Source: a bacterium
GTDB taxonomy: Bacteria; Patescibacteriota; Patescibacteriia; 2-01-FULL-39-33
Length of the DNA: 64,000 bases
Direction of reading: 5' to 3'
NCBI GenBank assembly: GCA_029558735.1
Contig: JAKQDP010000047.1
Coordinates: 209 to 64,208 of the forward strand
Shown here: positions 3,857-43,098 of the stretch, in pieces
Layout of the letters: the number at the start of each line of letters is the position of its first letter
How positions within the stretch are numbered: the stretch's first letter is position 1
Made by a program: the position numbers and the translations under genes
Notes under the pieces: generated by a model
What the model was told of the DNA's origin: nothing
The model's input: only the letters and a program-made list of their open reading frames with translations
Databases searched by the model: none

Positions 3857-6843
3857 TGATTTGATTTACATTTGCCAAAACAACAACCGGTTCGACCGCT
3901 AGCCGGATCAACAGTTGGATAATCTTTAGTAATCACCCAGCTACCGGAAATATCATCAGACGCGTTTTCATAGAGTGGCTGACAAGAATAATTCTCGTCA
4001 AGACAAACTTCCGCATCAGTGATTTCCGAACATTTCAAATAACCATAAGAAGCCGGATTAGGCATCCTAACTTTTACACAACCGCTGGTAATACCCTCAC
4101 TGGTATATTGACATTGACCTGAGCCCGCTTCTATTGGCCCGGCGCTGGGCAAAAAACAATTCTGAGTAATTGATTCCGCGCCCGAGCCAACCAAGGGCGC
4201 ATAAGCGGCATACAAATCCAAAATATGATGCTGTAAGTTGGCTGAAGTATAATCGGGCCAGCCATCATTATCTTGGTCATAATTGACCTTAGTCACCCAA
4301 AAACCGACTGGATTAGCGTTAACCGTCAAAGTGTTCAAAGCCAAATAACGGGTAGTCCGACTTTTCTGGTCGCTGGTTGGGCCGTAATTCCAACCCGGCT
4401 TTAAGCTGGCGCTGCGCATTAAACGATCAAAAGAAAAATTTACCGGCTGATTAAGGTTGCTGGTCATTGCTCCGCCGGTCATATCCTCGGAAACAATGGC
4501 CATAATCAGAGGCGCCTGACGATCAATCTCCGTTGACACCCAAAAACTCCAGCGAAAATTATCACCAAAACCATTAACTTCCGGATTTGATTGACCAAAC
4601 GGCGGATTGGACAAATTAAGGTCGTAAAAACTTTTTGGGCCATTAGCCAAGCCATAGACTTGACCGTTTTCCTGATAATAATCAAAGCTGCCGTTTAAAG
4701 AATTGCCGGCCAAATCAATAATACCATTGACTTCATTCAAATTGGCACCAACCCCCGGATAAAAAACCATCTGATCGCCTACCCTTCTGGCGCAACGATT
4801 ATCGCTACCGCCAACACAAGCTCCCTGCCATTGGTCGCAGCGCGGATCCGAACAAACCATCAAGTCGCTGGCCTTAATTTCAACCTGATAATGAGTGGCG
4901 ACTCCCTGTTCCGGCGCCCCGTCATACATCGGCCAACAATACATCTGGTTGCCGCAAGTATTTAGTCCACATTCAATACTGCCCCGTAAACCAACTGTGG
5001 TATAATCAGCCGATATCTCGGTGATAAAATCAGCCAAAACATCCTCAGCATCATCAAAATCGCCATCATTATTTCTATCGTATTTAATCACTATATTATC
5101 AATAAAAATTGGATTAATCGGCTCATTAAATTGAAGCTCAAACAATTGATTACGGTAAACATCCGGCTGGTCATTGACGGTCTGATTTTGGCTGGCGTTT
5201 AAACCGTCAATCTTAGTAGAAGAAAAAATGACCGACTTATTCAAAACAAAATTCAATGAGTAGCGACTGCTATTTTCGCCGACTTCTTTAGTGACAATGG
5301 AACTATCGCTTTCTTTCTTGAAAATATCGCCACTGCCGCTAATAAGCGCCGAGGTAATATTGGCCGTGGTCTTAGCGGCGTCTTGACCAATAGCAATATC
5401 GCGACCAAAAACATATTTTTTAATCACCTGTGAATCAGATAACACCTCAACATAATCACCCGGCTGATAAGCCGTCACCGCAAATTTCCAGGAATTCCCC
5501 CCCACTGCCCAGGACCCACCCTGCTCATTCGCCGCCTCAGTCAAAGAAAAAGTTAAACCATAAGGACCGATATTAATTGTCTGGCCCTGACTATAAGAAC
5601 CAGAATAATTATCCATTATTCCCGGCCAATCAACCGCAACAGTTTTACCGTCAGGTTGAATAGTGACTGTCACCTCACCACTGGCAGTACCGCCATAACT
5701 GCCGGAAATTGTGGCGCTGGGCGAGCTCGGAGCGCTAACCGGCGAAGTATAGGCTGAATTAATTTCTGGAGTTAAATTGGCTTGATTAAAAATAGTATAA
5801 GAAAATTTAGTTGCGGTCGGCGCGATCGCCGGGCTGTAACCATCCGCCTCCTCATCCGGCGCCGGTGATACACCGCTGATACTGGGCATTCCCGAGGGAT
5901 TAAGAATGGTATTAGTACTTAATATTTCCGGCGGATCAAGGTCCAATTCGCCATTAGTGACAAACGACCAGGAAAATTGGCGACCAATCAACCGCTCTAA
6001 TACTGACTCGCCATCAGCGGCCCGGCTGATTCCTTCTTTTAGGGTCACCATAAACTCCCGATTCTGCAAATCCTCAAGACCCAGATAAATTTTAGGGGTA
6101 ATAACAAAAGTCCTAGCATCAGCTGTCTGCCAAACAGTAGAGCCGACAAATTTATCAACCGAAAAATCAGTCTCGGTCTCACATAAATTATTATCCCCTA
6201 ATTTACAAACATCAATATTAAGCATGGTGTCGCCATCGCATTTGTCGCTATCATTAACATCGGCGACATTACAAATAGTCGCGGGCATAATCGGTTCTTT
6301 AAAGGTAACCGCCAGCCAAGTGTTAATCGGCACGTCGCGCTGGTTGGGAGCGGGATAAACGCTTTGAATTGGGCCGGCGCCGATGCCCCAACGGGACAAA
6401 TCATTGCCACTTCCCGGCCTCGGCCCCCAACTGCCATCACGACCGCCCCACAGCTGGTTGATAATAAACGAGACAATCGCAAAGGCGGAAAAAATAATAA
6501 TTAAGCCAATAACCGCATTAATAATTATCTTCTTGGCTTTGTCAATTTTTGCCGGATCACCAGCGGCGGTCATCCAAATAAACCCGGCATAAAGAATCAA
6601 TAACACGGCCAAAATACCCAAAAAACCCAAAATCACCTGAACAATACGAGCAATGGTTTCAATTAAATTATTAGTGCCCAGACCAAAATCGCGGGCTGTT
6701 GTTAAACCGTAATTCTCCAGTGGTCCGGAACTGGCCAAAGTGACTGTCGGCGCAAATAAAAAAACCACCACTGCCAGACCTAGTATAAGCAGGGTGGTTT
6801 TTTTATTAAATATCTTTCCGGTTAAGAAAGGATAAAAAGGCAT
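3853..6843 (-). CDS. Giant (996 aa) secreted/surface protein with an N-terminal TrbC/VirB2-like pilin module and a Cys-rich C-terminal region
   Basis: ORF track. The N-terminus has a signal peptide, then LENYGLTTARDFGLGTNNLIETIARIVQVILGFLGILAVLLILYAGFIWMTAAGDPAKIDKAKKIIINAVIGLIIIFSAFAIVSF. This two-helix hydrophobic pilin-like module is typical of TrbC/VirB2-like domains fused to large extracellular proteins. The C-terminus is Cys-rich (…CCFGKCKSNQ). Confidence 0.8.
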   Translation of the reverse strand: MPFYPFLTGKIFNKKTTLLILGLAVVVFLFAPTVTLASSGPLENYGLTTARDFGLGTNNLIETIARIVQVILGFLGILAVLLILYAGFIWMTAAGDPAKIDKAKKIIINAVIGLIIIFSAFAIVSFIINQLWGGRDGSWGPRPGSGNDLSRWGIGAGPIQSVYPAPNQRDVPINTWLAVTFKEPIMPATICNVADVNDSDKCDGDTMLNIDVCKLGDNNLCETETDFSVDKFVGSTVWQTADARTFVITPKIYLGLEDLQNREFMVTLKEGISRAADGESVLERLIGRQFSWSFVTNGELDLDPPEILSTNTILNPSGMPSISGVSPAPDEEADGYSPAIAPTATKFSYTIFNQANLTPEINSAYTSPVSAPSSPSATISGSYGGTASGEVTVTIQPDGKTVAVDWPGIMDNYSGSYSQGQTINIGPYGLTFSLTEAANEQGGSWAVGGNSWKFAVTAYQPGDYVEVLSDSQVIKKYVFGRDIAIGQDAAKTTANITSALISGSGDIFKKESDSSIVTKEVGENSSRYSLNFVLNKSVIFSSTKIDGLNASQNQTVNDQPDVYRNQLFELQFNEPINPIFIDNIVIKYDRNNDGDFDDAEDVLADFITEISADYTTVGLRGSIECGLNTCGNQMYCWPMYDGAPEQGVATHYQVEIKASDLMVCSDPRCDQWQGACVGGSDNRCARRVGDQMVFYPGVGANLNEVNGIIDLAGNSLNGSFDYYQENGQVYGLANGPKSFYDLNLSNPPFGQSNPEVNGFGDNFRWSFWVSTEIDRQAPLIMAIVSEDMTGGAMTSNLNQPVNFSFDRLMRSASLKPGWNYGPTSDQKSRTTRYLALNTLTVNANPVGFWVTKVNYDQDNDGWPDYTSANLQHHILDLYAAYAPLVGSGAESITQNCFLPSAGPIEAGSGQCQYTSEGITSGCVKVRMPNPASYGYLKCSEITDAEVCLDENYSCQPLYENASDDISGSWVITKDYPTVDPASGRTGCCFGKCKSNQ

Positions 6844-22749: not shown

Positions 22750-22822
22750 CGCGGGGTAGAGCAGTTGGCAGCTCGGCGGGCCCATAACCCGCAGGTCGCC
22801 GGTTCGAGTCCGGCCCCCGCAA
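22750..22822 (+). tRNA. Initiator tRNA-fMet (anticodon CAT)
   Basis: Cloverleaf with a C1xA72 mismatch and three consecutive G:C pairs closing the anticodon stem (GGG/CCC). T-loop TTCGAGT. No encoded CCA. Confidence 0.85.
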
Positions 22823-22832
22823 CAAAATAGGA

Positions 22833-22904
22833 GCCAGGGTAGCTCAGTGGTAGAGCAGTGGACTCATAAGCCATTGGTCGTGGGTTCAATTCCCACCCCT
22901 GGTA
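22833..22904 (+). tRNA. tRNA with anticodon CAT (elongator Met, or Ile2 if lysidinylated)
   Basis: Acceptor GCCAGGG/CCCTGGT, D-arm GCTCAGTGGTAGAGC, anticodon loop CTCATAA, T-arm GTGGGTTCAATTCCCAC. Confidence 0.8.
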
Positions 22905-22913
22905 CATCCAGAT

Positions 22914-22999
22914 GCCGAAGTGGCGGAATTGGTAGACGCGCACGACTCAAAATCGTGTGGACTCTGTCCATGAGGGTTCGATTCCCTCCTTCGGCACCA
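22914..22999 (+). tRNA. tRNA-Leu (CAA), class II with a long variable arm; CCA encoded
   Basis: Acceptor GCCGAAG/CTTCGGC, anticodon loop CTCAAAA, long variable arm, T-arm GAGGGTTCGATTCCCTC, 3' ACCA. Confidence 0.85.
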
Positions 23000-23006
23000 A
23001 AAAGCC

Positions 23007-23030
23007 AAAACGAGTAAATCTCGTTTTTAT
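23007..23030 (+). terminator. Rho-independent terminator after the tRNA cluster
   Basis: AAAACGAG-TAAAT-CTCGTTTT hairpin with a T-run. Confidence 0.75.
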
Positions 23031-23059
23031 TTTGACTCACATTTCTAAAAGCGACCCAA

Positions 23060-23149
23060 GGAATCGAACGGGCAGAAGCGATCCCGAGTTCTCTGGAGAG
23101 CGTCGACAGATGCAAGCTGGCGCAGCATCCGGCGCTGCCCCGGACAACG
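23060..23149 (+). repeat. Conserved tRNA-adjacent structured element, copy A (paralogue of 41381..41477)
   Basis: Shares GGA..CGA.ACGGGCAGAAGCGA, then hairpin, AGCGTCG, hairpin, CGCTGCCC(C)GG.A.C.ACG with copy B. The hairpins differ in sequence but keep their pairing. Confidence 0.6.
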
Positions 23150-23185
23150 AGACTATTTTGTCTTTAGACAAAATAGCGAGGCGTA

Positions 23186-23262
23186 ATTCCCTCCTTCGGC
23201 ACCAAACTACAATTTTCTGAAAATCCCCCAACGAGTTGACCTCGTTTTTATTGTCCATCCTT
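23186..23262 (+). repeat. Diverged direct duplicate of the tRNA-Leu 3' end (ATTCCCTCCTTCGGCACCAAA, 21/21 identical to 22981-23001) plus a terminator-like hairpin
   Basis: Exact 21-nt repeat. The following hairpin, AACGAGTTGACCTCGTTTTT, resembles the hairpin after the intact tRNA. The T-arm is degenerate (GAGG-CGTAATT-CCTC). Confidence 0.7.
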
Positions 23263-39017: not shown

Positions 39018-39482
39018 ATGGGAATAATTGCTAAAAATAAAAATGCCCTGTTTAACTACGAAGTTTTGGAGACCTATCAGGCCGGCATTGTCTTGAGCGG
39101 CCCAGAGGTCAAATCAGTTAAAACCGGCCACATCCAACTCAAGGGTAGTTATGTCACCATTGACGCTAACCAGGAAGTCTGGCTTATTGGCGCCTATATT
39201 TCTCCCTACAAACCGGCGGCTCATTCCCAGACGAGCTACCACCCCAATCAGCGACGGAAGCTGTTATTGAACAAAAAAGAAATTAATTCCTTAATGGGGA
39301 AAACCAAACAAAAAGGCTTGACAATTATCCCAATTTCAGTATATACTAACAAAAGATTAATCAAAATTGATTTGGCGCTGGCGCGGGGCAAAACCCGAGT
39401 CGATAAACGAGAAACCATCAAAAAACGAGAAACCGCCAGAGAGATTAATCGCGCCCTACGGTCAAAAAATAATGGCCGCTAA
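39018..39482 (+). CDS. smpB: SsrA-binding protein SmpB
   Basis: ALFNYEVLETYQAGIVLSGPEVKS…GLTIIPISVY. Confidence 0.92.
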   Translation: MGIIAKNKNALFNYEVLETYQAGIVLSGPEVKSVKTGHIQLKGSYVTIDANQEVWLIGAYISPYKPAAHSQTSYHPNQRRKLLLNKKEINSLMGKTKQKGLTIIPISVYTNKRLIKIDLALARGKTRVDKRETIKKRETAREINRALRSKNNGR

Positions 39483-39486
39483 AACT

Positions 39487-39872
39487 GGGGATGTATCGCT
39501 TCGATAGGAATAATTTAAAAATTAACAAGCCGAGGTCGGTGTTACCTCGCTAAACCTGCCGACTAAGATAAGTGCAAACAACTTATTTGCCAAATTAAAA
39601 TCTGCTTTCAGCGGATTGGCTTTGGCTCCTGCCGTTGCTTAATTTAGCTTAACGGCCATCGCCTTGCCTTAGGCCCGACGGGCAACTAGCGGTGTTATAT
39701 TATCGGGCTCGGTGATAATCCCGCCTTGAGATTATCACTTAAAACTCCAAGGCCAAGCTGTTGCCGTTTTGCTCCTTTTTACAGGCAACAGACTAAAATA
39801 AAAAGGAGCTAAGCTTGTAGTTTAATTTTTAATCCTTATTCTTAGACAGGGGCTCATTACCCCTCATCTCCA
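39487..39872 (+). ncRNA. ssrA: tmRNA (ssrA), about 386 nt
   Basis: Immediately downstream of smpB. 5' GGGGAUG pairs with 3' CAUCUCC, including the G3:U70 alanine identity pair; the discriminator is A. There is an internal ORF ending …GCUUAA that gives the tag (A)NNLFAKLKSAFSGLALAPAVA*. Confidence 0.8.
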
Positions 39873-39891
39873 CTGATAAATAAATAAAATA

Positions 39892-41090: not shown

Positions 41091-41296
41091 TATTGACTTT
41101 CCATAAAATTACTGCTAAAATAACTTCTGACGCATTAGTTGGAATACCGAATATAATCCAAATGCAGAAAAGAAATAATTAGAAAATAGAAACTATTTCG
41201 CCTTCTCGCTCAACTCGGGTAGAAAAATGGTTCCCTCGACCGAATGTGACAATTTATAATTTAAAAACGCTTGGGGGGCGTACCTGCCCGCCTTGG

Positions 41297-41376
41297 GTGG
41301 GGCTCACAGTTTGGTTACCTGTCCGCCTTTGGTGGAGAGCGCTGCCCTGTCACGGCAGAGGGTCGAAGTCCGCCCC
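41297..41376 (+). pseudogene. Degenerate tRNA-Asp-like fragment
   Basis: 41336-41360 is identical (25/25) to the tRNA-Asp D-stem plus anticodon arm (AGAGCGCTGCCCTGTCACGGCAGAG). D-loop CAGTTTGGTTA is present but interrupted by an insertion. The acceptor and T-arm are not conserved. Confidence 0.55.
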
Positions 41377-41380
41377 AGGC

Positions 41381-41477
41381 GGACGAGACGGGCAGAAGCG
41401 AAACAATTCGCCGATAGGCGAATGAGCTGAGCGTCGCTGAATGCGACCCCTGGGAGCATTCAGCGCTGCCCGGGAAC
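41381..41477 (+). repeat. Conserved tRNA-adjacent structured element, copy B (paralogue of 23060..23149)
   Basis: GGACGAGACGGGCAGAAGCGA, hairpin (ATTCGCC-GATA-GGCGAAT), AGCGTCG, hairpin (CTGAATGC…GCATTCAG), CGCTGCCCGGGAACG. This is the same skeleton as copy A with compensatory hairpins. Confidence 0.6.
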
Positions 41478-41529
41478 GTCGGGTGTAACCCGCGACCGAA
41501 ACAATTTTAACAATCAATTATCAATTTAT

Positions 41530-41607
41530 GGACCGGTAGCTCAGTTTGGTTAGAGCGCTGCCCTGTCACGGCAGAGGTCGCGGGTTCAAGTCCCGTCCGG
41601 TCCGCCA
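41530..41607 (+). tRNA. tRNA-Asp (GTC), CCA encoded
   Basis: Acceptor GGACCGG/CCGGTCC, anticodon loop CTGTCAC, T-arm CGGGTTCAAGTCCCG, then a terminator hairpin (41620-41652). Confidence 0.88.
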
Positions 41608-43098
41608 ATCGCAACAGAGAGCCCTTTGATACACTCTATCAAAGGGTTTTTTATATGCTATACTTATGTTTTTGTCTTTAAGTGTAGAGTTCAAAAGTAA
41701 AAAATTAAGTAGTTCTTGTTTTTCCTCTGATTTGGCATTTTCATAAAGTAAACTCGCCATATTTGAGAGTTCCAAAATATTTATGCCTGTTCGGTAATAA
41801 TCAATGTTAGCTTTTGTTAGCTTGCTTAATTTATCATTTAAGTCCTCAATCTTTTTCTCATATTCGCCAGCTTTTTTATTGTAATAATCTTTTGTAATTG
41901 TCCTGTCCAACCTATCCTCGTATAGTGTGTCTAAACTGCTCTCTAAACGCCGTTTTTCGTCCTCTAACGCCTCTCTGGTCTTGTCTTCGGTATTCCTCTT
42001 AAACTGCAAAGAGCCCTTTAATCCCTCTGCCACATACAATATAGTATCTTGGGAGGGCAGTTTTATGCCCTCCAAATATTTAGCTATTTGTCCGTCTAAT
42101 TCCTCCTCTTTTGCTGGCTGTTGGGAGCAATCTGTTTTGTATTTAGTGCAACTATAATAAACATATTCTCTCCCAGACGGCTTGGTTTTGCGTATAGCGG
42201 TAATATTCCTCCCACACTCCCCGCATTTCATTAAGCCCTTAAAAGTAAAATCCAAAGTGTTGTATTTAGAAAGCATTTTTTTATTCTGAAATCTATCTAA
42301 AACATTTTGGACTTTATTCCAAAGCTCTTTGGTTATAAGCGGTTCGTGTGTGCCTTTATATAACTTATCTTTCCAAATAAAATCTCCATAATAAAACGGA
42401 TTGCGTAAAATCCTTTGTGCCGTGCTTTTTGTTATATTTTTTAATTTAGTATTTTGGGGAAAATTAGCGGGTATTAACAAGCCCTCGTCTTTTACTTTTT
42501 TAATTAAACTATCAAGAGAATATAAACCAGTAGAATAATACTCAAACATCTTAATTGCCAATGTCTTATTTTTCTCATCAATCACTGGCACGCTTTTATT
42601 ATTCTGCTTTTCCAGTTTATAGCCCAGTGGCGGAGTGCTACAAGGATAAACTCCGCTTTCCGCTTTTTGAGCCAATCCTTTTTTAACTTCCTCGCTTAAA
42701 TTATCAATATAATTCTTAGCCATTAAAACCTTTATCCCGTGCATAAATTTTTGGTGGGAGTTTGCGTCTTTTCCTATCCTTTCGTTTTCCTTAACTAAAA
42801 CAACCGTTATACCGAGTTCGTCTATAATTACGTAGTCCTTAAAATTTCGGTATAAGCGGTCTGTTTTTTCTACTAATAAATTATCTACTTTTTTGTTCTG
42901 CTCTAAATACTCAACCATTTGCGAAAAGCCAGTCCTGCCAGCTTGCTTGGCGGTTTCGTCATCTTCAAACTCCTTAACAACCTTAAAACCATTTACTCTG
43001 GCATACTCCCAAAGCAGTTTTTTCTGAGCTGGTATTGAGTAGCCCTCGTCTTTCTGCTCTTTTGAGGATACTCGGACATAGATGACTGCTTGTTTCAT
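41566..43098 (-). CDS. Large serine recombinase (integrase)
   Basis: N-terminal resolvase catalytic domain (AVIYVRVSSKEQ…), a recombinase domain, a zinc ribbon (CGECGRN…YYSCTKY) and a coiled coil. The last ~30 codons are antisense to the tRNA-Asp 3' end and terminator (…GRDLNPRPLP). Confidence 0.85.
   Translation of the reverse strand: MKQAVIYVRVSSKEQKDEGYSIPAQKKLLWEYARVNGFKVVKEFEDDETAKQAGRTGFSQMVEYLEQNKKVDNLLVEKTDRLYRNFKDYVIIDELGITVVLVKENERIGKDANSHQKFMHGIKVLMAKNYIDNLSEEVKKGLAQKAESGVYPCSTPPLGYKLEKQNNKSVPVIDEKNKTLAIKMFEYYSTGLYSLDSLIKKVKDEGLLIPANFPQNTKLKNITKSTAQRILRNPFYYGDFIWKDKLYKGTHEPLITKELWNKVQNVLDRFQNKKMLSKYNTLDFTFKGLMKCGECGRNITAIRKTKPSGREYVYYSCTKYKTDCSQQPAKEEELDGQIAKYLEGIKLPSQDTILYVAEGLKGSLQFKRNTEDKTREALEDEKRRLESSLDTLYEDRLDRTITKDYYNKKAGEYEKKIEDLNDKLSKLTKANIDYYRTGINILELSNMASLLYENAKSEEKQELLNFLLLNSTLKDKNISIAYKKPFDRVYQRALCCDWRTGRDLNPRPLP

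Follow-up and report, generated by a model that had tools for sequence, protein, structure and literature searches.

Integrative elements that target transfer RNA (tRNA) genes reportedly do so at a T-loop sublocation, following the attP/attB logic of tyrosine integrases, as Williams is said to have set out in 2002. Fujishima and colleagues reportedly described archaeal tRNA introns at non-canonical positions, for which transposition between tRNAs was proposed, together with split-tRNA leaders. Small GC-rich palindromic mobile repeats include the REP/REPIN sequences, the GC clusters of yeast mitochondria and the double-hairpin elements of Allomyces. Phage T4 encodes within its tRNA gene cluster a free-standing GIY-YIG homing endonuclease, SegB, that favours inheritance of the tRNA region around it (PMC2330249). 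Here we analyse a small structured element that occurs twice, as copy A and copy B, in a 64,000-nucleotide (nt) stretch of Patescibacteriota DNA (contig JAKQDP010000047.1, positions 209 to 64,208; hereafter the window). In Patescibacteria this element is found almost exclusively where an intact tRNA gene meets a broken copy of the same tRNA. With about even confidence, we read it as a non-autonomous mobile element specialised for the tRNA genes of Patescibacteria, the core of which would be a cis-acting module.

By analogy, the nearest known logic is that of the tRNA-targeting integrative elements, with their T-loop breakpoint and rebuilt 3' end. The element shares with them this breakpoint, a direct repeat of the tRNA 3' part that runs to the tRNA end, the retention of an intact tRNA and tandem insertions. 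It differs from them in that the insert is only ∼150-250 nt long, no integrase lies nearby, the core is a three-way junction abutted by an inverted tRNA segment, and the same core serves 16 isotypes. As regards the sites of insertion, the closest analogues are the archaeal non-canonical tRNA introns and the GC-rich palindromic repeats. As with the archaeal introns, GC-rich structured inserts are found in D-, variable and T-loops, and related inserts occur in different tRNAs of one genome. Unlike those introns, the element has bacterial hosts, the interrupted copies are truncated pseudogenes beside an intact gene, neither a bulge-helix-bulge nor a splicing endonuclease is implied, and the larger of two classes of copies (class 1, below) lies outside the functional tRNA. 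REP/REPIN sequences and GC clusters are likewise short, GC-rich, hairpin-forming, multi-copy, noncoding and intergenic in AT-rich genomes; however, families of this type are species-specific simple hairpins, whereas the element is tied to tRNAs and has a branched core with junction bases that are invariant across deep lineages. The likeness to SegB consists of a GIY-YIG gene amid tRNA genes, as small GIY-YIG open reading frames (ORFs) abut tRNAs here. These ORFs differ from SegB in their length of 79-100 amino acids, and the element often occurs without the ORF and vice versa.

A family of tRNA-linked elements

A covariance model built from 50 copies gave only two matches in the window, copy A at 23057-23152 (81.9 bits) and copy B at 41377-41483 (72.1 bits). 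These are the two places that an earlier note, made by a model from the letters of the window, had proposed. The copies have the blocks ACGGGCAGAAGCGA, GAGCGTCG and GCGCTGCCC in common, and a 14-mer common to both occurs exactly twice in the 64 kilobases (kb). The G+C content of their cores (61-66%, against 41% for the window) agrees with the note, as do their hairpins, which differ in sequence while keeping their pairing: helix P3 (defined below) is CAGAUGC/GCAUCCG in copy A and UGAAUGC/GCAUUCA in copy B, and P2 of copy B contains AUUCGCC/GGCGAAU. Copy A is flanked by tRNA-Leu (22914-22999) on one side and a 21-nt repeat of its 3' part (23186-23206) on the other, and copy B by a degenerate tRNA-Asp copy (∼41297-41367) and tRNA-Asp (41530-41607), so that the described setting between a tRNA gene and a partial tRNA copy is borne out for both. 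Two of the four tRNAs in the window carry an element.

Further copies were collected in two pattern scans. The first, on representative genomes, used a gapped pattern with 25 fixed bases and returned 62 stretches, ∼45 of them real and the remainder chance matches in GC-rich coding DNA. The second scan, on metagenomes, fixed only the 5' half of the core; ∼60 of its 67 stretches hold the whole core, including CGCUGCCC, for which no selection had been made. The covariance model also recovered diverged copies that both patterns had missed. After removal of duplicates, pattern scans and model together yielded 85 unique copies on genome and metagenome contigs, and the resemblance that the earlier note saw between two copies is thus not confined to them. 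Most contigs are labelled as Patescibacteria (Saccharibacteria, Moranbacteria, Kerfeldbacteria, Buchananbacteria, Doudnabacteria and others). Because the few other labels belong to bins of metagenome-assembled genomes whose neighbouring genes look Patescibacteria-like, we treat the family as specific to Patescibacteria. The loci concerned are labelled Gammaproteobacteria (L005, L009, L017, L023, L035, L037, L048 and L055), Acidobacteriaceae (L015, L018 and L049) or also non-Patescibacteria phyla (L019, L030, L038 and L057); their contigs are AT-rich and carry Patescibacteria-like ribosomal proteins, which suggests mis-binning or mislabelling.

The element family is apparently uncatalogued. At the gathering score, Rfam 15 found only the transfer-messenger RNA (tmRNA) gene and the four tRNAs in the whole window; at E-values up to 10, sub-regions of 281 and 311 nt gave just two chance matches, both outside the core, and in 15 further loci no family lay over any core. 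Viral (IMG/VR), phage and plasmid collections contained no copy by the strict pattern or by blastn, and a looser pattern returned only chance matches in GC-rich coding DNA from viral DNA. Full-text literature searches found no description of the motif.

The core is a covarying three-way junction

According to the consensus structure, the core is a GC-rich three-way junction of ∼70-80 nt (range 60-90 nt). Helix P1 (GGGCAG/CUGCCC) leads into the junction strand AA. P2 starts with a GC/GC mini-helix and tandem G.A/A.G pairs, continues as a variable helix that is often branched, and is followed by the junction strand GU. P3 consists of CG/CG, an A.G mismatch and a variable helix of 7 base pairs; there is no linker between P3 and P1, and the two stack directly. 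The junction purines are close to invariant. A tail, YGGRAN, follows P1; in most copies it leads on to P4, a variable hairpin, and then to a strand rich in purines (GAGGCGGA-like).

In the metagenome alignment, which was fitted to the model, pairing holds in 95% of the cells and both sides have changed in 16 of 20 pairs, a covariation signal that folding of single-stranded DNA would give equally. None of 500 shuffles reached the observed covariation score, and pairing fell to 28-39% in controls with slid partners. All helices covary, each with compensatory changes, as is generally looked for in a conserved structure, and the covariation suspected in the earlier note is therefore real by both the shuffle and the slide controls. 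Copies that were not selected by pattern add compensatory variants of P1 (GGGUCG/CGACCC in L057, CGCCAG/CUGGCG in L151 and L156) and of the mini-helix (GU/AC in place of GC/GC). The excess of G.U over A.C (32:12 and 18:4) indicates that the folding strand is the tRNA sense strand; the folding molecule may be RNA or single-stranded DNA, since this excess fits both. Folded by itself, copy B adopts the consensus as its minimum-free-energy structure (z = -4.1), whereas copy A folds no better than its shuffles (z = 0.05), so that the structure of copy A draws its support from the family alignment only.

The tRNA matches of ARAGORN and Rfam are confined to the flanking genes and partial copies and leave the core uncovered. 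Since the core is also the same beside all 16 isotypes, it is not a diverged tRNA segment, the explanation that the earlier note had set against its own proposal.

In one subfamily (L151 2263-2377, L156 4288-4395, L060 7649-7750, L079 8778-8879 and L087 5295-5386) the junctions change together, from AA..GCGA..GAGCGU to CA/UA..GUGA..GAACGC, as might be expected if the two junction strands were in tertiary contact.

Two classes of insertion at tRNA genes

Linkage was counted for the 74 copies whose upstream sequence extends over 200 nt or more. A same-strand tRNA ends at most 150 nt upstream in 53 of these and an opposite-strand tRNA in none, which extends the tRNA adjacency reported for the window to the family at large. 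The tRNAs beside the element represent 16 isotypes.

Class 1 comprises 66 of the 85 copies, copy A included. Its order is intact tRNA, spacer (often with a terminator), 5' arm, core, tail with or without P4, and a direct repeat (S2) of the 3' part of the tRNA, the original of which within the gene we call S1. The reversed arm begins in every case at G53 or T54 of the local tRNA and matches it over 8-19 nt; it also follows unusual T-loops (GTGC..) such as GTGCAAATCC. S2 starts at tRNA position 54, 56 or 58, and as a rule the repeat stops 0-6 nt past the 3' end of the tRNA. In most class 1 copies this amounts to an att-type repeat that begins at positions 54-58, extends to the end of the tRNA and measures 17-26 nt or more. 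Integrase or phage genes such as mark att remnants are not seen at these repeats, which lie ∼150-250 nt apart with no shared recombinase within 3.5 kb. In the young-looking copies L013, L028, L040 and L010, T-loop, terminator and arm form one long palindrome. The parts of copy A are as follows.

22750-22999: tRNA-Met, tRNA-Met and tRNA-Leu(CAA), from ARAGORN and Rfam
22914-22999, + strand: intact tRNA-Leu(CAA), from ARAGORN and the Rfam tRNA model
22976-22999, + strand: S1, the last 24 nt of tRNA-Leu from G53, repeated downstream and mirrored by the antisense arm
23007-23027, + strand: terminator-like hairpin between tRNA-Leu and copy A
23060-23069, + strand: 5' arm GGAATCGAAC, exact antisense of tRNA-Leu G53-C62
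23070-23140, + strand: core, three-way junction, from the alignments, the consensus structure and the 81.9-bit match
23070-75 with 23135-40: P1, followed by junction AA
23078-81 with 23098-101: mini-helix GC and tandem G.A
23082-97: variable part of P2, followed by junction GU
23104-13 with 23125-34: P3, with loop 23114-24
23141-23185, + strand: tail, consisting of CGGACAACGAG, the P4 hairpin (23152-23176) and CGAGGCGUA
23186-23206, + strand: S2, a 21-nt exact direct repeat of tRNA-Leu A58 through CCA plus 2 nt
23230-23246, + strand: second terminator-like hairpin, past S2

A degenerate extension of this arm may reach back to 23051. S2 of copy A can pair with the 5' arm (GGAAU/AUUCC), and the tail corresponds to the purine-rich tail of most P4-containing copies. 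When reversed, the arm region 23051-23069 (GTTCGATTCCTTGGGTCGC) is closer beyond position 62 to the 3' part of tRNA-Glu(UUC) than to that of tRNA-Leu, a weak signal that could be the trace of an earlier host tRNA. As a general idea, a distal arm that keeps a 'memory' of the previous host tRNA was rejected, as the matches were weak and noisy and the tRNA-Glu likeness unconvincing.

Three-way comparison of arm, S1 and S2 found 10 sites where the arm equals S1 and not S2, one where it equals S2 and not S1, and 13 where S1 equals S2 and not the arm; tRNA function thus preserves S1, and the arm and S2 drift. The comparison showed no compensatory changes that would maintain the arm helix. A seemingly better conservation of the arm-pairing part of S2 relative to its distal part (2/281 against 39/449 mismatches) was discarded as biased, because S2 had been anchored by an exact seed in the proximal part. 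With the 3' segment present twice, as S1 and as the decaying S2, the tRNA gene stays functional, and the element rides in the tRNA transcription unit in sense orientation. An encoded CCA is not enriched on element-bearing tRNAs (29/49 versus 46/81).

Class 2 comprises copy B and ∼15 others. These copies carry a GC-rich GU..AC hairpin directly 5' of P1 and interrupt a partial 5' tRNA copy after GG, with the intact tRNA a few tens of bases downstream. The break lies in the D-loop for tRNA-Lys, Met, Asn and Ala, and in the variable loop for tRNA-Asp, Gly and Val. The parts of copy B are as follows.

41297-41367, + strand: degenerate 5' copy of tRNA-Asp, from D-arm to variable loop, broken after ...GGCAGAGG
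41318-41336: 19-nt GC-rich hairpin insert (CCUGUCCGCCUUUGGUGGA) in the D-loop of this pseudo-tRNA-Asp
41368-41389, + strand: own 5' hairpin P0' (GUCCGCC-CCA-GGCGGAC) and linker GAGAC, directly 5' of P1
41390-41471, + strand: core, with a minimum-free-energy fold equal to the consensus and a 72.1-bit match
41390-95 with 41466-71: P1
41398-401 with 41429-32: mini-helix and G.A
41402-28: variable part of P2
41435-44 with 41456-65: P3
41472-41496, + strand: tail GGGAAC and hairpin GUCGGGUGUAACCCGCGAC
41530-41607, + strand: intact tRNA-Asp(GUC), 52 nt downstream of copy B, from ARAGORN and Rfam

The degenerate tRNA-Asp copy is called a tRNA by neither ARAGORN nor Rfam. Hairpins of the GU..AC type in other class 2 copies are equivalent to P0' of copy B. 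If the promoter-like site at 41093-41121 is used, copy B would form part of the tRNA-Asp leader. Both antisense stretches singled out in the earlier note are genuine reverse complements, and that of copy A turns out to be the target-specific arm that is general in the family. That of copy B (AACCCGCGACC, the reverse complement of tRNA-Asp 41576-41586) is not a general feature; it lies in a hairpin that folds back locally on the 3' side of the core, and the 3' half of the tail hairpin is antisense to tRNA-Asp 45-55.

In either class a further helix always abuts P1, formed by the element's own hairpin (class 2) or by the arm and the T-loop-to-3' segment of the tRNA (class 1). Both classes can be read as one design of helix, three-way junction and tail, in which the outer strand of class 1 is the tRNA 3' part.

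Inserts resembling the one in the pseudo-tRNA-Asp were observed elsewhere: loci L023, L100 and L154 have a 29-nt insert at the same D-loop position, and GUCCGCC-N3-5-GGCGGAC-like hairpins recur at many junctions of element loci. A second, simpler core type (GGGCGC...GCGCCC, with P2 absent or reduced to one hairpin) occurs in L046 (∼5190-5260), L024, L011 and L137. It lies between full cores in L024 and L011 and at the downstream end in L137, and it is combined with the same parts as the full core, namely the antisense T-loop arm, the YGG tail and the repeat of the tRNA 3' part.

Signs of turnover

Several observations are signs of turnover at tRNA genes. Among the interpretations offered in the earlier note, that of a tRNA-associated mobile element is supported by the many isotypes, the several copies per genome, arrays, decaying repeats and deleted remnants. 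In one Saccharibacteria genome the cores at tRNA-Thr and tRNA-Arg are at least 93% identical, while their arms, tails and repeats differ. Arrays of two to four units are present in L011, L024, L045, L047 and L060, units without an upstream tRNA in L005, L009, L048 and L050, and S2 decays while S1 stays intact. The orientation is sense in 84 copies and inverted in one; this sole copy with a core inverted relative to the adjacent tRNA (L049 111-184, at tRNA-Tyr) has direct repeats of the antisense tRNA 3' end on both sides of the core.

The copy A locus can be compared with two relatives. In L074, which is syntenic (ParB, ParA, tRNAs, ORF), the ORF directly follows tRNA-Leu and there is no element; in the closer relative L071 only a remnant of tRNA, terminator, arm and GGCA is left. 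Five conspecific contigs that share an identical L20 gene also carry copy B in identical form. In a sixth (L145), a 230-nt deletion takes away the pseudo-tRNA and most of the core, whereas AGCGCUGCCCGGGAAC, a part of the copy B tail, is retained and the tRNA is not lost. Relatives at 83-89% L20 identity have the element upstream (L154) or downstream (L151) of tRNA-Asp.

Neighbouring genes

Clustering of the ORFs within 3.5 kb of the copies revealed no recurrent integrase, recombinase, transposase or reverse transcriptase. A shared neighbouring protein was considered and rejected, as the recurrent clusters reflect housekeeping synteny around particular tRNAs. The sole recurrent neighbours are the small GIY-YIG ORFs, which comprise the catalytic domain only. 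They are enriched beside element-bearing tRNAs: in 880 kb of loci there are 24 GIY-YIG matches, 18 of which (14 unique) lie on the same strand within 320 nt of a core, usually in the order GIY-YIG ORF, tRNA, element. Such ORFs adjoin tRNAs at L033 1664-1912, L102 10562-10837, L051 545-793, L022 3551-3829, L129 1624-1911, L156 3927-4298 and other loci. In front of several of these ORFs lies a partial 5' copy of the adjoining tRNA, which is broken in the T-loop, D-arm or anticodon loop and carries small GC hairpins. A composite unit of ORF, tRNA and element fits the tRNA-Gln loci L033 and L102; it was rejected because the break points do not match elsewhere. The window itself contains no small GIY-YIG ORF.

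Beside copy B, a large serine recombinase ORF (Resolvase, Recombinase and Zn-ribbon domains; 41566-43098, - strand) overlaps tRNA-Asp with its 3' end; its presence is specific to the window strain. The DNA just past tRNA-Asp is wholly different among the window, L146 and L145, whereas the upstream DNA is nearly identical, so that the tRNA-Asp 3' end is an integration hot spot for larger elements.

Interpretation

In the mechanism that we infer for this mobile element, insertion would take place at exposed loops of tRNA genes, and the core would be a cis-acting module that is recognised or used catalytically during this step. The folding single strand would have sense polarity, in the simplest case as a read-through transcript of the tRNA promoter. 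The process would require a nuclease or recombinase that acts in trans, for which the small GIY-YIG family that crowds the same tRNA loci is a candidate; the GIY-YIG cassettes and the element may share a mechanism. Within this frame movement may be RNA-based, with a ribozyme or guide whose arm pairs with the T-loop, or DNA-based. The DNA-based version, in which a folded strand or small circle acts at the T-loop and brings its own 3' part and terminator, fits the extent of the repeats best, and neither version explains how the arm is re-made for each tRNA. A strand-displacement or fold-back model for the S1-antisense-S2 arrangement was downgraded, since it predicts repeats that reach the palindrome centre and most repeats stop at the tRNA end.

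Several points weigh against a mobile element of this kind. Among the loci examined there was no transposition intermediate, no clean recent pair of filled and empty sites and no mobilising enzyme. The near-identical cores at tRNA-Thr and tRNA-Arg could reflect gene conversion as well as recent movement. The stop of the repeats at the tRNA 3' end fits a self-supplied tRNA 3' part, which leaves the re-making of the arm for 16 isotypes unexplained. RNA expression is uncertain, because many class 1 copies lie behind a terminator and lack a promoter of their own, and as compensatory changes are lacking, the arm helix may be a relic and not a functional part. Since 25 core positions were fixed by the first pattern, their invariance there is by construction, a constraint that the second scan and the model matches relieve only partly. 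Finally, all four independently fetched GIY-YIG homologues abut a tRNA and none of the four is accompanied by the element, which argues that the GIY-YIG cassettes and the element share a habitat without forming one obligatory unit.

One alternative, which we think unlikely, is that the element is a new small ribozyme or RNA-guided element with a catalytic three-way junction, directed to the T-loop by its antisense arm. Cleavage and ligation at G|U (G19|U20, G46|U47, G53|U54) would insert or release it at the RNA or DNA level. We would equally be surprised if the core proved to be a new class of small catalytic or guide RNA that moves between tRNA genes and rebuilds the tRNA 3' end. Such an RNA would account for the invariant junction purines, the strand-specific G.U excess, the arm complementary to its target, the constant sense orientation inside tRNA transcription units, and insertion points that all lie after GG in single-stranded loops of the folded tRNA; the ends of the class 2 insert are, moreover, brought together at the junction of P0' and P1. 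The resemblance to hammerheads extends to a three-way junction, tandem sheared G.A pairs that extend a helix, few invariant junction purines and covarying variable helices. However, the hammerhead core (CUGANGA, GAAA, NUH) is absent, the junction strands being AA, GU and none, and the tandem G.A pairs are flanked by a GC mini-helix; Rfam ribozyme models gave no score on the element sub-regions even at E-values up to 10. Nor is there a linked reverse transcriptase among the ORFs within 3.5 kb. As the interrupted tRNA copies are no more than partial pseudogenes, there is no need for splicing. The arms, moreover, decay with no compensating changes, and the simpler core type in the same architecture argues that the three-way junction is not essential to it. 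Group I introns of tRNA genes share hosts and target genes with the element and are likewise selfish RNA-type inserts. They are, in contrast, ∼200-250 nt long, sit in the anticodon loop of a functional gene and match Intron_gpI, whereas the element core is never inside a functional tRNA and no core matches this model, which does detect a true intron in L058. That locus has both: the intron (5549-5765) interrupts a tRNA just upstream of an element copy. If the core were catalytic or a guide, it would represent a protein-independent or minimal-protein mobile RNA element in ultra-small bacteria, which might work with a GIY-YIG nuclease of ∼80 amino acids that lacks a DNA-binding domain of its own.

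We are similarly doubtful of a second alternative, in which the element would be a miniature integrative module or a recombination site of folded single-stranded DNA, by analogy with the hairpins of integron attC or CTX-phage attP. As a circle, such a module would recombine at the T-loop of a tRNA gene with the help of a recombinase or nuclease supplied in trans, carrying along its own tRNA 3' part and terminator. The class 1 order (tRNA 1-53, S1, terminator, arm, core, tail, S2) is indeed that of a circle [S-loop-AS-core-tail], AS being the arm, integrated at the T-loop, and classes 1 and 2 are circular permutations of the same parts. The direct repeat from T-loop to tRNA 3' end (plus 0-6 nt), as in integrase att cores, the tandem arrays, the inverted core of L049 and the long, nearly perfect S1/antisense palindromes of L013, L028 and L040 also suit it. 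It is opposed by the lack of a recurring integrase or recombinase near the copies, by the absence from the viral, phage and plasmid collections, by the retargeting of the arm to 16 isotypes, which it leaves unexplained, and by the 84:1 orientation, which excludes flip-flop. The attC consensus boxes (R'' RYYYAAC, R' GTTRRRY) are not matched either, as the fourth base of the arm ..YCGAAC and of the T-loop GTTCGAN violates both, and the arrays hold only tRNA fragments. A miniature element of IS200/IS605 type (PATE) or an omega/reRNA scaffold may be a further candidate; no TnpA, TnpB or IscB ORF lies beside any copy, the Rfam models HEARO and IS605-orfB are unmatched, and partial tRNA duplications would be unexpected in this family. 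TIGR-Tas arrays, with 36-nt units and box C/D-like repeats, were set aside as unrelated.

It is rather improbable that the element is a non-selfish host RNA, co-transcribed with tRNAs and serving as a processing, stability or regulatory module or as a decoy of the tRNA 3' end. The very strong conservation of the core across deep Patescibacteria lineages, the sense orientation inside tRNA units and the identity of copy B in the tRNA-Asp leader of five conspecific contigs would suit such a role, and the antisense arm could pair alternately with S1 or S2 in the manner of a switch. What makes it less likely is the patchy occupancy (two of four tRNAs in the window), the deletion of copy B in a conspecific contig that kept the tRNA, and the pseudo-tRNA contexts; remnants, arrays, decaying arms and the terminator between tRNA and element in many copies speak against it as well. 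That the element is an inert att remnant, left by former integration of phages or islands into tRNA genes and devoid of conserved function, is very improbable. Direct repeats of the tRNA 3' part and a tRNA-Asp that is an integration hot spot beside a large serine recombinase would fit such a scar; a conserved, covarying core of 70-80 nt shared across 16 isotypes and many lineages, with no copy in viral collections, would not.

The element departs from the defining features of the Rfam families, tRNA, the hammerhead, group I introns, attC and att remnants with an integrase. If our reading as a mobile element is right, Patescibacteria, with their streamlined genomes, would host widespread miniature elements that settle in tRNA genes and leave them functional. 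The architecture of these elements is unusual: a conserved branched fold has an inverted copy of the 3' part of the tRNA on one side and a direct copy on the other. Such elements would account for stray partial tRNAs, pseudo-tRNAs and assembly breaks at Patescibacteria tRNA loci, and would offer a sequence-defined system for how small structured elements choose and rebuild their targets. The core of only ∼70 nt would also be a strong candidate for a new functional RNA, possibly a catalytic one.

Further features of the loci

Upstream of copy B, the window contains, in order, smpB (39018-39482), the tmRNA gene (39487-39875; Rfam, 134 bits), infC, rpmI and rplT. Elsewhere, a LOOT RNA lies at 164-298 in L011, and a LAGLIDADG-like ORF at 2834-3511 in L009 is close to a tRNA-His remnant.

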